Source of the DNA: a virus
Taxonomy: Duplodnaviria > Heunggongvirae > Uroviricota > Caudoviricetes
Virus record (IMG/VR): IMGVR_UViG_3300029518_000108
Length of the DNA: 8,548 nucleotides
Reading direction: 5' to 3' (one strand)
The notes under the pieces are model-generated. The model worked only from the letters and a program-made list of their open reading frames with translations. It did no database searches and was not told where the DNA came from. The position numbers and the translations under genes are program-made. Below, in pieces: positions 1 to 4,076 of the stretch. The number at the start of each line of letters is the position of its first letter. Positions within the stretch are counted from its first letter, which is position 1.

Positions 1-1
1 G

Positions 2-2152
2 CCTTCACATGCCGGAACCATTACCGTCTATGAAGGTTCCAGACCAGGTACGCTGAATGATTTTCTCGGTGCCATGACGGAAGATGATGTCATGCCGGAG
101 GCATTGCGTCGTTTTGAGGAAATGGTGGAAGAAGCGGCACGCAACGCTGAAGCCGCCTCTCAGAGCGCAGCGGCGGCAAAGAAATCCGAAACTGCAGCGG
201 CATCATCGAAGAACGCGGCGAAAACCTCAGAAACGAATGCAGCTAACAGCGCACAGGCGGCAGCGACCTCACAGACTGCATCGGCAAACTCCGCGACAGC
301 AGCCAAAAAATCAGAAACCAACGCGAAAAACAGCGAGACAGCCGCAAAGACGAGCGAAACCAACGCAAAGTCCAGCCAGACGGCAGCGAAGACCAGCGAA
401 ACGAATGCCAAAGCCAGTGAAACTGCGGCAAAAAACAGCCAGGTTGCAGCAGCCCAAAGCGAGAGCGCGGCAGCCGGTTCTGCGACTTCAGCAGCTGGAT
501 CAGCAACTGCTGCGGCTAACAGCCAGAAAGCTGCGAAGACGAGTGAAACTAACGCAAAGTCCAGCCAGACGGCAGCGAAGACCAGCGAAACGAATGCCAA
601 AGCCAGCGAAACTGCGGCAAAAAACAGTCAGGATGCAGCGGCCCAAAGCGAGAGTGCCGCAGCTGGTTCTGCAAGTGCGGCGGCTAATAGCCAAAAAGCT
701 GCAAAAACCAGTGAAACTAACGCAAAGACGAGTGAAACAAAAGCAGCAGCCAGCGAGACAGAAGCAACGTCAGCCGCAACAAGAGCAGAGAATGCAGCCC
801 GGATTGCAGAAGATGCCGCTGATCCTGCTTCAGTCCCTCCGCTTCCTGATATCTGGCTACCCTTGAATGATTCTCTGGAAGCGATAACAGGGTATGCCCC
901 GGGCTATAAAACAATAACCATCGGCAGTGATGAAATAACAATGCCTGTTAATGGCATATGCCAATTTAGCCGCGCTTCATCAGCAACGTATATTGATAAG
1001 TCAGGGCATATTACCGTGGCAGGGAATAACGTTCCTCGTTTTGAAAAATATGGTTTGCTGATAGAGAATCAGCGAACAAACATGTTCGTAAATAGTTTTA
1101 ATCCTGATGCGTGGAATAAAAGCGGTGGTATATCTGTAACATCATCAACAGATGAATTTGAGTTTAAATATGGACGTTTCGCAGTAGGAAGTGAGATAGC
1201 AGGAACGACAACAGGGAGAAATATATGCACAGTTGCTGGTAATAAAGGCATAGATGTGACTGGCGATGATCAGTACAGTAAAGGTCCGTATGTTACCGCG
1301 TCGTTCAGGGTAAGAAGTGATCTCAATGTTCGCGCACGTATCCGTTTTGAACGGTATAACTCGGAAGGATACACTTTCCTTTGTGACGCCTATTTGTCAT
1401 TACAGACCCATGAACTACAAATTACGGGTGGTAATGCCCAGCTATTAACAGCAAACTTTGAAATCGACCCTGGTAGTGGATGGATATATTTTCAGGCAAC
1501 ACTGAAATGTCTGCCAGAATGGGGAATGGTTGGTACGCAGCTGCAAATTGCAGCCGACAGAGCAGTGGGGGCTTTTGCAACAGGTGACTGGATAGAAGTA
1601 ACCACCCCGCAATTCGAGTATGGTGCTTGTGCAACTTCCTTTATCATAACGACAACAGAGCCAGCGACTCGTGCATCAGATTTATGTAAATTTCCGCTGA
1701 TGAAAAATATGTATACCATGCCTTTTACGTTCATGGTGGAAGTCCATAAAAACTGGTTTATTTCTCATAATGCTGCACCGCGTGTCATTGATTCAGAAAA
1801 TCACCAGTCCGGAGGCCCATTTATTATGGGGTTTGGTTCTTCTGGAACTATCAGTCAGGATGGTTATTCGTATTGCGATATAGGCGGGGCTAACCGGCGT
1901 GTATATGAGTCATGCGGAGTAAGAGATCTCGTTATGGGATTCAGGGTTAAGGCTGACGGCATGACATGCTCATTTGCAAATAAGAATATAAGCACTGAAA
2001 CCAAAACAGTATGGAAATATATTCGTGAAGCAGCCGTGATTCGTATCGGGGGGCAAACGACGACAGGATTACGACACCTTAATGGTCATATAAAAAACCT
2101 CCGTTTCTGGAACAGAGCATTGTCAGATACGCAGCTTAAGGAATACGTATAA
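2..2152 (+). CDS. stf: Side tail fibre protein (lambda Stf-like), 5'-partial: the reading frame is open from position 2, the ATG at 74 is internal
   Basis: Translation from position 2 gives PSHAGTITVYEGSRPGTLNDFLGAMTEDD..., matching the lambda Stf segment I recall (HAGTITVYEDSQPGTLNDFLCAMTEDD). This is followed by KTSETNAK/AAKTSE-type repeats and a 430-aa C-terminal module ending ...GHIKNLRFWNRALSDTQLKEYV. Stop TAA at 2150-2152. Confidence 0.9.
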   Translation, partial: PSHAGTITVYEGSRPGTLNDFLGAMTEDDVMPEALRRFEEMVEEAARNAEAASQSAAAAKKSETAAASSKNAAKTSETNAANSAQAAATSQTASANSATAAKKSETNAKNSETAAKTSETNAKSSQTAAKTSETNAKASETAAKNSQVAAAQSESAAAGSATSAAGSATAAANSQKAAKTSETNAKSSQTAAKTSETNAKASETAAKNSQDAAAQSESAAAGSASAAANSQKAAKTSETNAKTSETKAAASETEATSAATRAENAARIAEDAADPASVPPLPDIWLPLNDSLEAITGYAPGYKTITIGSDEITMPVNGICQFSRASSATYIDKSGHITVAGNNVPRFEKYGLLIENQRTNMFVNSFNPDAWNKSGGISVTSSTDEFEFKYGRFAVGSEIAGTTTGRNICTVAGNKGIDVTGDDQYSKGPYVTASFRVRSDLNVRARIRFERYNSEGYTFLCDAYLSLQTHELQITGGNAQLLTANFEIDPGSGWIYFQATLKCLPEWGMVGTQLQIAADRAVGAFATGDWIEVTTPQFEYGACATSFIITTTEPATRASDLCKFPLMKNMYTMPFTFMVEVHKNWFISHNAAPRVIDSENHQSGGPFIMGFGSSGTISQDGYSYCDIGGANRRVYESCGVRDLVMGFRVKADGMTCSFANKNISTETKTVWKYIREAAVIRIGGQTTTGLRHLNGHIKNLRFWNRALSDTQLKEYV
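347..706 (+). repeat. Near-identical tandem direct repeat inside stf: unit 1 is 347-535 (189 bp, 63 aa), unit 2 is 536-706 (about 171 bp, with an 18-bp in-frame deletion)
   Basis: Direct comparison of 347-535 with 536-706 shows only a few mismatches; the encoded peptides are both KTSETNAKSSQTAAKTSETNAKASETAAKNSQ.AAAQSESAAAGSA... Shorter degenerate copies lie at about 170-346 and 707-760. Confidence 0.9.
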
Positions 2153-2421
2153 TGCGGGATATAACATTACGATTCGATAACAGAGAACAGTTTAACGCAA
2201 TTGTATATGACAGTGGCCTGTTCAGTCTTGAAGAAGAAAATGGGGTTCTTGTTGATGTTATTGGCTGCATTATTGATTACGAGGAGCCAGAAAACGAAAG
2301 ATGTACAGGCATTGATCGCGGTGGTTTTTTCGTAAACATGAGGATTGTTGATGGCAGTAAAAACATATCTTCTTTAATGCCTTTCATTACGACAGATCAG
2401 CATGTAAGGACATGGGCTTAA
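2152..2421 (+). CDS. Hypothetical acidic 89-aa protein, translationally coupled to stf (TAATG overlap); possible fibre-tip assembly factor
   Basis: ATG at 2152 overlaps the stf stop; AAGGA at 2138-2142; same AT-rich composition as the stf C-terminal module. I recognise no motif in it. Confidence 0.55.
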   Translation: MRDITLRFDNREQFNAIVYDSGLFSLEEENGVLVDVIGCIIDYEEPENERCTGIDRGGFFVNMRIVDGSKNISSLMPFITTDQHVRTWA

Positions 2422-2433
2422 TGGAGTAAGACA

Positions 2434-3117
2434 ATGGTTACAAAAACAGTAATTCCGGGAGACATCACCACGCTAAAGGGAGATATTTCCTCAATTAACG
2501 GAAAAGTATCAACGCTTCAGACTGAGATGACCAGTGCAAAGCAGGATATCAGCACCAGATACACAAAAACTGAAGTTGATAATAAGCTGAAAAACAAAGT
2601 GGAAGCGAACGATCTGGAAAGCGGTCGTTATGGCGGTGATTTTTACCCGCTGACTGGCCGCGAAGCGTTTTATTTATGGGGGTTGGGCACGACTACTGCG
2701 GCGGCAAACCTTTATCTTAATCCTGACCCTGCAATTTCGTCTGTACTGCGGTCCACATCGTCTATCCGCTATAAACATTCAGTAGAGACGATAGATTCAG
2801 AGCACGCCGATCTCATTTTCAGGATGCGCCCTGTGTGGTACAGGTCGCAATGCGAAAATGACAGGCGTGACTGGGGGTTCTACGGATTGATTGCCGAGGA
2901 AGTAGGAGAAATTGCCCCTCAGTTTGTACACTGGCGACCAGCTAACGAAGATGATGCTCCTGAAGCTATTTCCAGCAATGGCCTTGTTGCCGAAGGTGTA
3001 ATGTACGAACGTCTGGTTGTTCCACTGATTCACCATATCCAGAAGCTGACTGAAAGAGTTGATGAACTTGAGTCAGAATTAAAGTTGTTATCCGTTTCCC
3101 GAAGCGATATCGGATAA
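2434..3117 (+). CDS. Tail-fibre-like protein, 227 aa: N-terminal coiled-coil-like segment plus a C-terminal intramolecular-chaperone (Peptidase S74-like) domain
   Basis: GGAG 7 nt upstream of the ATG. C-terminal half SSIRYKHSVETIDSEHADLIF...WGFYGLIAEEVGEIAPQFV...GVMYERLVVPLIHHIQKLTERVDELESELKLL fits the S74 chaperone pattern as I recall it (S-x-R-x-K, GLIAQEV-like core, terminal helix). Confidence 0.7.
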   Translation: MVTKTVIPGDITTLKGDISSINGKVSTLQTEMTSAKQDISTRYTKTEVDNKLKNKVEANDLESGRYGGDFYPLTGREAFYLWGLGTTTAAANLYLNPDPAISSVLRSTSSIRYKHSVETIDSEHADLIFRMRPVWYRSQCENDRRDWGFYGLIAEEVGEIAPQFVHWRPANEDDAPEAISSNGLVAEGVMYERLVVPLIHHIQKLTERVDELESELKLLSVSRSDIG

Positions 3118-3127
3118 AGGAGGCGTA

Positions 3128-3417
3128 ATGGATATAACACCTTTCCTTCATGCACTTTGTGCTGTGGCTGCGCAGGTACTGGTTGGTCTTTTTACCGGAA
3201 ACTGGGCTTACGGGGCGATAGCTGGTTGTACGTTCTTCATTGCGCGTGAACATACCCAGGCAGAATATCGCTGGATTGAAATGTTCGGGCATGGCAAGCG
3301 TATGAATATGCCGTGGTGGGGCGGTTTTGATCCGCGCGCGTGGGATGTGGCAAGCCTGATGGATTTTGCTGTGCCGGTGGTGGCGTGTCTGCTGGTCTGG
3401 CTGTTGGTTAATCGTGG
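3128..3417 (+). CDS. Small predicted inner-membrane protein (about 3 hydrophobic helices); 3' end undetermined because the ORF runs into the assembly gap
   Basis: Strong Shine-Dalgarno AAGGAGG at 3117-3123, ATG at 3128. Hydrophobic stretches FLHALCAVAAQVLVGLF, YGAIAGCTFFIA, VASLMDFAVPVVACLLVWLLV. The listed ORF end at 3505 crosses the N-run and is not trustworthy. Confidence 0.5.
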
Positions 3418-3427
3418 NNNNNNNNNN
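3418..3427. other. Assembly gap (run of 10 N); true length and content unknown
   Basis: Ten consecutive n characters; flanking genes are incomplete on both sides. Confidence 0.99.
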
Positions 3428-3438
3428 AAAAAAGGTGA

Positions 3439-3567
3439 GCTGTATATGCAACGGAGGAAGAAAACTCGTTGCTGGAAGCCTGGAAAAAGTATCGGGTATT
3501 GCTGAACCGTGTTGATACGTCAACTGCACCTGATATTGAGTGGCCTACGAACCCTGTCAGGGAGTAA
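3439..3567 (+). CDS. tfa: 3'-terminal fragment of a tail fibre assembly (Tfa) gene; N-terminal part missing in or before the gap
   Basis: Frame ending at TAA 3565-3567 translates to ...[38 protein letters not shown], matching the conserved lambda Tfa C-terminus as I recall it ([26 protein letters not shown]). An in-frame TGA at 3436-3438 sits just after the gap. Confidence 0.7.
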
Positions 3568-3581
3568 TCATTGGGATTATG

Positions 3582-3614
3582 CCGCAGCACGTCTTAAGCA
3601 AGAACGTGCTGCGG
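3582..3614. terminator. Perfect 11-bp inverted repeat (CCGCAGCACGT, 11-nt loop, ACGTGCTGCGG) between convergent tfa and dinI-like genes; candidate bidirectional terminator
   Basis: Stem read directly from the sequence; only weak T-richness follows on either strand, so intrinsic-terminator function is uncertain. Confidence 0.4.
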
Positions 3615-3682
3615 TTGGATGGTGAACTTTCGATAGTGCGAGTATTGAATGATTTCCAGCCGTTACCGATTTTACGTGTTAA

Positions 3683-3931
3683 TTAGTGAACAAACCACTC
3701 GTCAGCAGACTCCCAGGTATCTTTCAGAGTTTCCTGAACAAAAGTTTTAGCTGAATCTTTATCGGCGGTGCGCGTAACAGAAAGGCCATCGTTGCTGGTA
3801 GCTTTTACGATCACCTCTACATCGTCATAACGTTTACTGATGCGTCGGGTTAATTCTTCCTTTAACGCATCCACAGCACCGGTTGGCATTTTAGTCATTT
3901 TTTCTTTGGCTATGCAGATTTCAATACGCAT
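3683..3931 (-). CDS. DinI-like protein (prophage-encoded DinI family, 82 aa)
   Basis: MRIEICIAK...[11 protein letters not shown] resembles E. coli DinI as I recall it (MRIEVTIAK...TWESADDWFV). GAGGG Shine-Dalgarno upstream on the minus strand; SOS promoter directly upstream. Confidence 0.85.
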
Positions 3932-3946
3932 AAAAGTCCCTCTACA

Positions 3947-3962
3947 CTGTGTTTGTATACAG
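3947..3962. promoter_or_regulatory. LexA box 1 (CTGT-N8-ACAG: CTGTGTTTGTATACAG) between the -10 and the dinI-like start codon
   Basis: Exact match to the CTGT-N8-ACAG core with an AT-rich centre; extended site is ACTGTGTTTGTATACAGTAT. Confidence 0.8.
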
Positions 3963-3967
3963 TATCA

Positions 3968-3996
3968 TTTTTAACTGTATGGATAAACAGTGTCAA
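3968..3996 (-). promoter_or_regulatory. Sigma70-type promoter of the dinI-like gene: -35 TTGACA (plus-strand coordinates 3991-3996), 17-bp spacer, -10 TAAAAA (3968-3973)
   Basis: Minus-strand read is TTGACA-ctgtttatccatacagt-TAAAAA; perfect -35, 4/6 -10, about 35 nt to the ATG. No transcription start mapped. Confidence 0.6.
3975..3990. promoter_or_regulatory. LexA box 2 (CTGTATGGATAAACAG) filling the -35/-10 spacer
   Basis: Exact CTGT-N8-ACAG core; extended site is AACTGTATGGATAAACAGTG. Confidence 0.8.
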
Positions 3997-4017: not shown

Positions 4018-4076
4018 TGGGGCATGCATGGGGCAAAAATATTTGTTGTGGGGCATTTTGGGGCATGATTGGGACA
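4018..4076. repeat. Five helically phased direct copies of TGGGGCA(T/A) (starts 4018, 4029, 4049, 4059; degenerate TGGGACA at 4070)
   Basis: Read directly; spacings are 11, 20, 10 and 11 bp, i.e. roughly one helical turn. Located between the dinI-like promoter and the prophage/yecE junction. Confidence 0.85.

Follow-up and report, generated by a model that had tools for sequence, protein, structure and literature searches.

The genes that follow stf at the right end of a lambdoid prophage belong to a widespread tail-fibre cassette of Escherichia coli phages

The three genes that follow the side tail fibre gene stf in the virus record IMGVR_UViG_3300029518_000108 of IMG/VR (Duplodnaviria; Heunggongvirae; Uroviricota; Caudoviricetes) are a widespread and mobile tail-fibre cassette of E. 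coli phages, and their arrangement is an ordinary one. The stretch of DNA analysed, called the window from here on, comprises 8,548 nucleotides (nt) and covers the right end of a lambdoid prophage together with the host genes that come after it, namely an isochorismatase-family gene, aspS, nudB and yebC. The three genes are open reading frames (ORFs) of 89, 227 and 97 codons, which we call ORF89, ORF227 and ORF97. An earlier note, made from the letters of the window, had described them as a non-canonical block; the block departs from the arrangement of lambda only, and a synteny survey found it to be common in described phages. Since the same gene order is present in many such phages and parts of the block match about one third of the complete E. 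coli genomes, the arrangement has to be regarded as ordinary. We consider it probable, though by no means certain, that the block represents a cassette for lateral tail fibres, conserved and moving horizontally, with three functional units: Stf together with ORF89, ORF227, and ORF97. Homology, synteny, coupling, conservation and selection are what the analysis shows; glycan binding, docking of the adaptor, autocleavage and the roles of ORF89 and ORF97 are proposals.

Layout of the block and its distribution among E. coli phages

The features of the locus are the following:

2 to 2152, plus strand: stf, cut at its 5′ end by the window edge; the frame is open from base 2 and encodes residues 70-785 of the 785-residue Stf
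833 to 2149, plus strand: C-terminal 'lectin head' module of Stf, with a head-spike-fibre-like domain (1058-1675) and, its last strands at 1994-2137, a Laminin_G_3-type domain
2152 to 2421, plus strand: ORF89, encoding a small acidic member of phrog_1361, with TAATG translational coupling to stf
2434 to 3117, plus strand: ORF227, putative precursor of a distal mini-fibre (adaptor, coiled coil, small tip, S74 chaperone)
2758 to 2775, plus strand: predicted autocleavage motif S109-S-I-R-Y-K114 of ORF227, with cleavage expected between S109 and S110
3128 to 3421, plus strand: ORF97, a small membrane protein of the phrog_1443 family, at the end of the operon; the stop codon lies inside the run of Ns at 3418-3427
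3439 to 3567, plus strand: 3′ remnant of tfa, 42 codons without a start codon, a recombination scar

As the earlier note had seen, stf and the acidic ORF89 overlap: the final A of the stf stop codon (TAA, 2150-2152) is at once the first letter of the ORF89 start codon ATG, which results in TAATG at 2150-2154. ORF227 starts at 2434, preceded by GGAG at 2423-2426; the gap that separates it from the stop codon of ORF89 measures 12 nt and not 13, as had been counted. The stop codon of ORF227 occupies 3115-3117, AAGGAGG lies at 3117-3123 and the ATG of ORF97 at 3128, 10 nt past the ORF227 stop. The description of this last gene as a small membrane-protein ORF with a strong AAGGAGG was confirmed, with the correction that it is 97 residues long and ends within the Ns. 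When the plus strand of the three-gene block was scanned for promoter-like and terminator-like sites, no internal promoter or terminator was found. The earlier note had also allowed for the possibility that these ORFs lack conservation; instead, all three are conserved and under purifying selection, the ratio of non-synonymous to synonymous substitution rates (dN/dS) being 0.08-0.45.

The synteny survey covered 19 loci, and the same order (fibre, ORF of about 90 codons, third gene) with the same junctions recurred in four siphovirus groups. The cassette was found in the lambdoid phages PhiR55_1, PhiR11_1, PhiR49_1 and IdasGreatGrand, in PeterMerian (Drexlerviridae), in VogelGryff and KurtStettler (Queuovirinae), in the T5-like phages IrisVonRoten and AKFV33, and in IMG/VR contigs. 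Genes of the ORF89 family were detected in 145 phage records when the phage 21 protein was used as query and in 40 with ORF89 of the window. Among 5,426 complete E. coli genomes, 1,925 matched part of window positions 2100-3417 and 45 matched the whole stretch; about one third of the ranked E. coli records carry both ORF227 and ORF97, one example being the Qin-like prophage in E. coli B. Lateral fibres made of two proteins had already been noted, and in part modelled, in the papers on the BASEL phages (PMC8594841, PMC11990801).

The cassette has a gene-for-gene homologue in Gp22-Gp23-Gp24 of IrisVonRoten (Bas32). The C-terminal module of Gp22 is 45-51% identical to that of Stf and bears a lectin/galectin-like head as Stf does, Gp23, whose gene overlaps the fibre gene by 4 nt, shows 33% identity to ORF89, and Gp24 has in common with ORF227 the N-terminal MVTKTVIPxDITxLK and an intramolecular chaperone (IMC) at the C-terminus. 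Gp24 is a T-shaped fibre of 574 residues with two receptor-binding domains, of which ORF227 looks like a minimal version. The two cassettes also differ in the N-terminal anchor of gene 1, which is T5-type in IrisVonRoten and lambda-type in the window, and in ORF97, which IrisVonRoten does not have. In the published AlphaFold-Multimer model Gp24 is attached to Gp22 (PMC11990801), and no role is assigned to Gp23 in that work (Humolli et al. 2025, PMC11990801). PeterMerian (Bas05) carries the same three genes, gp31-gp30-gp29, with an equally small gene 3: gp29, labelled as a chaperone in GenBank, has 231 residues, is 58% identical to ORF227 and contains the same TSSxRYK motif, while gp30 is 31% identical to ORF89. 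This phage is virulent and has neither ORF97 nor the tfa scar. The lambdoid phage 21 has the same lectin-head type of Stf, an overlapping ORF of 92 codons, which matches the ORF89 family in hmmsearch (E 3.5e-46), and the same ORF97, but gene 3 is wholly absent from it.

Regarding lambda itself, the locus lies after J and lom, as does lambda Stf/Tfa, and a 3′ remnant of tfa has been retained; in contrast to lambda, the fibre tip is lectin-like, there is no functional gene for the tail fibre assembly protein (Tfa) downstream of stf, and ORF89 is unrelated to Tfa. In an ancestor of the lambda type, the cassette has probably taken the place of tfa and of the C-terminal portion of stf. The concept of a second fibre hung on a first one is also found in LtfA/LtfB of the T5-like phage DT57C (PMC4728585, PMC10713586), with the differences that LtfA ends in an IMC and not in a lectin head, and that no small ORF lies between the two genes. 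We considered LtfB-type docking, which is shared with phiEco32 gp15, and rejected it, because the first 120 residues of LtfB are unlike the N-termini of ORF227 and of the third genes of AKFV33 and IrisVonRoten.

The lectin-like fibre head and the ORF89 family

The Stf of the window is 98.6% identical to the full-length, 785-residue Stf of E. coli THO-008 and of the induced phage PhiR55_1, and it matches phrog_1419 (E=0). Its N-terminal tail-attachment domain is homologous to that of lambda Stf: the partial protein of the window matches PF08400 (E 1.5e-9), and the N-terminus of a full-length relative matches the 'Tail fiber protein' of PDB entry 9e7m (E 7e-49). Stf keeps a lambda-type N-terminus, which would plug into the tail tip. 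Its ORF had been listed as 74-2152, a start that we discarded, the frame being open from base 2 and the first residue of the window being residue 70 of Stf. The shaft carries SETNAK-type repeats, and this Ala/Ser/Thr-rich region hosts two long non-genic ORFs, one in an alternative frame (84-866, plus strand) and one antisense (160-694, minus strand), both of which were set aside as by-products of repeat composition.

The C-terminal module of Stf, of about 440 residues, is the part that is shared most widely. Fibres of lambdoid, Drexlerviridae, Queuovirinae, T5-like and Vequintavirus phages have it in common at 30-65% identity, it showed 35-51% identity to eight other fibres, with a common end of the form ...GH[IV][KR]N[LF]R[IV]W..., and tblastn located it in 206 phage records. 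Residues 422-627 match the NCBIfam model GTA_spike_fiber (E 2.9e-12), and a profile made from the C-termini of 12 fibres matched the RcGTA head spike fibre 6tb9 in the PDB (E 2.4e-7). Pfam Laminin_G_3 was recovered in all 12 of these homologous C-termini, with a best E of 1.5e-9, whereas the window-type Stf reaches it at E 9e-4 only, below the gathering score. The description of Stf as LamG-tipped thus stands for the family and is, judged by these profiles, a fair one, although the window sequence itself falls under the threshold. For IrisVonRoten Gp22, the homologue of Stf, the description given is that of a proximal fibre from which a galectin-like domain protrudes (Humolli et al. 2025, PMC11990801), and an analysis with RBPseg reported that lectin-like heads take the place of S74 ends on fibres of Vequintavirinae (PMC12143355). 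The globular head of Stf, with its head-spike-fibre-like and Laminin_G_3 domains, most likely binds surface glycans.

ORF89 belongs to phrog_1361 (E 1.9e-30), a family of unknown function. A word-index search with its single sequence returned four fragments only, so that a profile of five sequences was required; with it we recovered 130 homologues of 88-96 residues, all of them unnamed. The ORF89 profile was also run against 1.84 billion representative proteins, where it gave 101 matches, almost all to small stand-alone proteins. None of these 101 matches was a fusion of ORF89 to a fibre, as would be looked for in a Rosetta-stone test, and the long proteins with multiple matches were PKD-repeat proteins; in three giant ones (P0256, P0257 and P0280) the profile matches 4-10 tandem repeats. 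Comparison with PKD by hhalign gave a probability of 84%, yet Pfam PKD was detected in 0 of 60 family members at E<=1. The AlphaFold2 (AF2) model of ORF89 (mean confidence score, pLDDT, 74) is a small alpha/beta domain with a helix at residues 11-21, which does not fit PKD, and a search for structural neighbours of this model yielded no informative fold match. No match to ORF89 was obtained in Pfam, NCBIfam, PDB or PADLOC; Caudo_TAP, one of the models with which the earlier note had proposed to check the three proteins, gave no match either, and ORF89 is not related to Tfa. Two genome-contig scans returned no relatives of ORF89 and leave its distribution beyond E. coli and its phages unmeasured. 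Literature searches by accession and on phage 21 and the ECOR phages brought up nothing on this small protein.

The association of ORF89 with the fibre head is seen in the genomic context. The start of the small ORF overlaps the stop codon of the fibre gene by 1-4 nt in 18 of the 19 loci. In phage 21, Lambda_2G7a and the IMG/VR loci L017 and L019, gene 3 is missing and stf is accompanied by the small ORF and ORF97 only, and in the Vequintavirus FFH2, a myovirus, a fibre of 1,479 residues with the same C-terminal end is followed by a 110-residue member of the ORF89 family (E 1.6e-18). In pairwise comparisons, identity between small ORFs correlated with identity between Stf C-modules (rho 0.53) and less with that between gene 3 bodies (rho 0.20); such correlations between identity matrices cannot tell physical interaction from linkage by proximity. 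Since the small ORF accompanies the head even where gene 3 is absent, we infer that ORF89 is a dedicated assembly partner of the lectin head that replaces Tfa functionally. Translational coupling would let it be produced in step with Stf, and it could act either as an assembly chaperone doing the job of Tfa or as a small subunit retained at the head. The proposal of the earlier note that it is a chaperone or adaptor for the LamG-tipped fibre is plausible in this light, the small ORF being strictly coupled to that head across five phage groups. A wider idea, which we put forward tentatively, is that the ORF89 family is a class of tail-fibre accessory proteins that fold or cap lectin-headed fibres in the place of Tfa and are retained as a socket for the adaptors, of about 26 residues, of distal fibres.

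ORF227 and the rival readings of the block

ORF227 is composed of an adaptor (residues 1-26, nt 2434-2511), a coiled coil (residues ~12-53), a tip (residues ~60-109) and an S74 domain (residues 110-227, nt 2761-3114). Its C-terminus matches phrog_3299 and its N-terminus phrog_4563. The earlier note had read the C-terminus as a Peptidase-S74 chaperone, and this was borne out by hidden Markov model search: residues 109-165 match Pfam Peptidase_S74 (PF13884) with E 7.4e-6 and 26.6 bits, above the cut-off of 22, and align to positions 1-57 of the 58 of the profile, S109 being position 1. The coiled-coil-like segment noticed at the N-terminus likewise appears in the AF2 model as a long helix (residues 12-40), and residues 120-226 are modelled at pLDDT 80-92. 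Foldseek comparison with the PDB retrieved the ICA domain of MyRF (7dc3, E 8e-5) and the IMCs of GA-1 (3gud) and endosialidase (3gw6). In sequence as well as in fold ORF227 matches the S74/ICA chaperones (endosialidase K1F, T5 pb1, GA-1 gp12, MyRF), with conserved Ser...Lys spacing; it differs from them in its unusually short passenger of 109 residues and in the residue that follows the Ser, which is Ser and not Asp. The S74 domain also aligns to the IMC of DT57C LtfA (8hqz_d), with TSSIRYK opposite TSGIEYK. The coiled coil weakly resembles the repeats of the P22 gp26 needle, and the tip, of about 45 residues, is conserved.

RSTSSxxYK, which includes S109 and K114, is invariant or nearly so in 33 aligned homologues of ORF227, and the S(x4)K spacing matches that of the Ser/Lys dyad of endosialidase. 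On account of this conservation and spacing, autocleavage is predicted at S109|S110, which would shorten the mature chain to 109 residues. Among the alleles of gene 3, which range from 227 to 586 residues, ORF227 is the shortest, those of other phages having 330-586. It is best read as a second mini-fibre equipped with an S74 chaperone that would cleave itself: an optional fibre that would extend or branch Stf. The S74 domain would fold the trimer in cis before cutting itself off, and beyond the adaptor there would remain a coiled coil, likewise trimeric, and a tip of very small size. The longer alleles carry real receptor-binding domains. One of the two roles offered by the earlier note, a second mini-fibre, is thereby retained; the other, a chaperone for Stf, is unlikely, since phage 21, Lambda_2G7a and FFH2 carry the head and an ORF89 homologue without gene 3.

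The N-terminus of ORF227 reads MVTKTVIPGDITTLK. The motif M[VAT]TxTxIPxDI[TK]xLK opens gene 3 in 17 of the 19 loci, the remaining two being those without gene 3, and it is the sole part common to all the alleles. Between L001 and L021, the gene 3 bodies are 95% identical, the first 25 residues 56% and the small ORFs 35%; conversely, between L013 and L021 the small ORFs are 90% and the adaptors 84% identical, and the gene 3 bodies 26%. A recombination breakpoint was located in E. coli at about codon 14 of ORF227, and in Wifcevirus, Gordonclarkvirinae and DT57C LtfA the same distal-fibre body starts after residue 27-49 of proteins with other N-termini. Because this segment segregates with the upstream genes and not with the body of its own gene, it fits a cassette-specific docking adaptor formed by the first ~26 residues of gene 3, which would dock on the Stf head, on ORF89 or on both.

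Two other accounts of ORF227 were weighed. It might be a non-functional leftover, namely the 3′ end of an ancestral long S74-ended fibre gene that was stranded when the lectin head and ORF89 were inserted. ORF227 does align to positions 1147-1384 of the 1,385 of phrog_3299 and the Stf shaft to positions 214-446, lectin-like head and S74 end interchange on similar fibres of Vequintavirinae (PMC12143355), and the neighbouring tfa scar marks the region as prone to recombination. However, ORF227 has its own GGAG, ATG and conserved N-terminus, its dN/dS is 0.16-0.41, stand-alone homologues of 221-269 residues exist in compact virulent Drexlerviridae and 60-kb phages, its clusters comprise 650 and 2,928 member sequences, and the same slot holds intact fibres of 330-586 residues in other phages. 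The start signals, the purifying selection, the homologues in virulent genomes and the very large clusters make this account very improbable. Hardly any better placed, and in our estimate a shade less credible still, is the notion that ORF227 acts in trans as a chaperone for Stf, as implied by the GenBank label 'putative lateral tail fiber chaperone' that the homologues of PeterMerian, VogelGryff and KurtStettler bear in the BASEL records. The label is in line with the title of the Pfam S74 family, 'Chaperone of endosialidase', from which it appears to stem. It is known, from endosialidase and T5 pb1, that S74 acts in cis on its own polypeptide; moreover, the same Stf head exists without gene 3, and IrisVonRoten Gp24 was modelled as a receptor-binding fibre (PMC11990801). 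Third genes so labelled lie at 5001-5696 of L006, 5267-6433 of L007 and 5001-6533 of L009. A simple S74-like regular expression found no match in the 510-residue gene 3 of KurtStettler, in the 388-residue one of VogelGryff or in several other alleles, so that the chaperone label is probably a naming artefact.

Instead of a transient chaperone, ORF89 could be a structural hinge or adaptor kept in the virion on the Stf head, as the socket for the adaptor of distal fibres, much as gp35 forms the knee of the long tail fibre of T4. This is an account that we take seriously and yet rate as rather doubtful. In its favour, the block of conserved linkage reaches from the extreme C-terminus of Stf across the small ORF into gene 3, of which it takes in the first ~14-26 residues; in the pairs L008/L020, L006/L018 and L013/L021 it is gene 3 with its adaptor, and not the head, that the small ORF goes with; the adaptor of gene 3 is found only in cassettes that have the small ORF; and the ORF89 profile resembles PKD/Ig-like repeats. 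On the other hand, the small ORF is kept without any distal fibre gene in phage 21, Lambda_2G7a, FFH2, L017 and L019, the AF2 model of ORF89 is not an Ig fold, and in the published model of IrisVonRoten the attachment of Gp24 to the proximal fibre does not involve the small protein (PMC11990801).

Some of these observations weigh against the cassette of three functional units as we propose it. Identities between L006 and L018 were 49% for the head, 85% for the small ORF and 95% for gene 3, and between L008 and L020 they were 44%, 78% and 86%; in such pairs the small ORF tracks gene 3, and linkage by proximity is therefore inseparable from interaction. The link of ORF89 to Stf or to ORF227 is one that we infer from sequence, and its PKD-like profile is a better fit to a structural Ig-like subunit than to a chaperone. 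For ORF227, it is the conservation of a motif that points to autocleavage, and a mature fibre of 109 residues leaves almost no room for a receptor-binding domain. Finally, lambda-type phages plate without side fibres, so that the plaque-forming PhiR55_1 is no proof that the block functions.

The end of the prophage and the significance of the cassette

ORF97 matches phrog_1443 (E 5.5e-59), has three predicted hydrophobic segments and evolves with a dN/dS of 0.08-0.36. A coding sequence of 97 codons corresponds to it in THO-008, H22, PhiR55_1, PhiR11_1, phage 21 and Lambda_2G7a. In temperate versions of the cassette it invariably closes the operon, and the versions of virulent phages lack it. 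A search with PADLOC for defence systems gave no match to ORF89, ORF227 or ORF97. Judging from its position and distribution, this membrane protein is probably an add-on expressed in the lysogen, for example with an exclusion function, and not a part of the fibre. The 10 Ns at 3418-3427 correspond merely to GTGA between the same flanks in THO-008; as the run stands for these four letters, ORF97 is 97 residues long and nothing else need be hidden there. An ORF of 125 codons (3128-3505) was discarded as an artefact of reading through the Ns.

What the earlier note had taken for a recognisable tfa after this gap is merely the start-less 3′ remnant of 42 codons, and relatives have it as a pseudogene: the Prokaryotic Genome Annotation Pipeline (PGAP) labels it 'tail fiber assembly protein, incomplete, missing N-terminus' in THO-008, H22 and NEBExpress, and in PhiR55_1 it is absent. 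The remnant is found at high identity right after ORF97 in many E. coli genomes, where it marks the right-hand breakpoint of the cassette.

The ORF97 side of the fibre operon is also a hot spot for cargo. The iron/manganese transporter genes sitABCD lie downstream of the ORF97 homologue in L025 (5307-8131), L026 (5268-8092) and L004 (10720-13538); in phage 21 and Lambda_2G7a they come immediately after it, and in E. coli H22 after a tfa remnant and an efflux transporter gene. E. coli LR-60 (NZ_AP027570.1) has reverse transcriptase and SLATT-domain genes within the stretch that matches window positions 1-3996, which looks like an insertion of the defence type. Further downstream in the window, two perfect LexA-box-like sites of the form CTGT-N8-ACAG (3947-3962 and 3975-3990) overlap a sigma-70-like promoter on the minus strand (3996..3967) and sit just upstream of a dinI-like gene (3683-3931, minus strand), which fits SOS control of a prophage DinI. 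Between dinI and the isochorismatase-family gene, TGGGGCA is repeated four times (4018, 4029, 4049 and 4059; span 4018-4065); at this end of the prophage, the repeats may belong to an attachment site or bind a recombinase.

For annotation, the block, the tfa scar and ORF97 can be treated as ordinary prophage content, and the third gene as one mislabelled as a chaperone in GenBank. The cassette is among the commonest fibre arrangements of E. coli prophages and of coliphages of the therapeutic type (T1-like, T5-like and rV5-like). It would be useful for the engineering of chimeric side tail fibres and the retargeting of host range, in that its lectin head would need ORF89 instead of Tfa and its distal fibres would be swappable behind an adaptor of about 26 residues. 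If the ORF89 family does fold or cap the lectin head and serve as a socket for the adaptors, the cassette would constitute a plug-and-play host-range system common to lambdoid, T1-like, T5-like, Seuratvirus-like and rV5-like phages.

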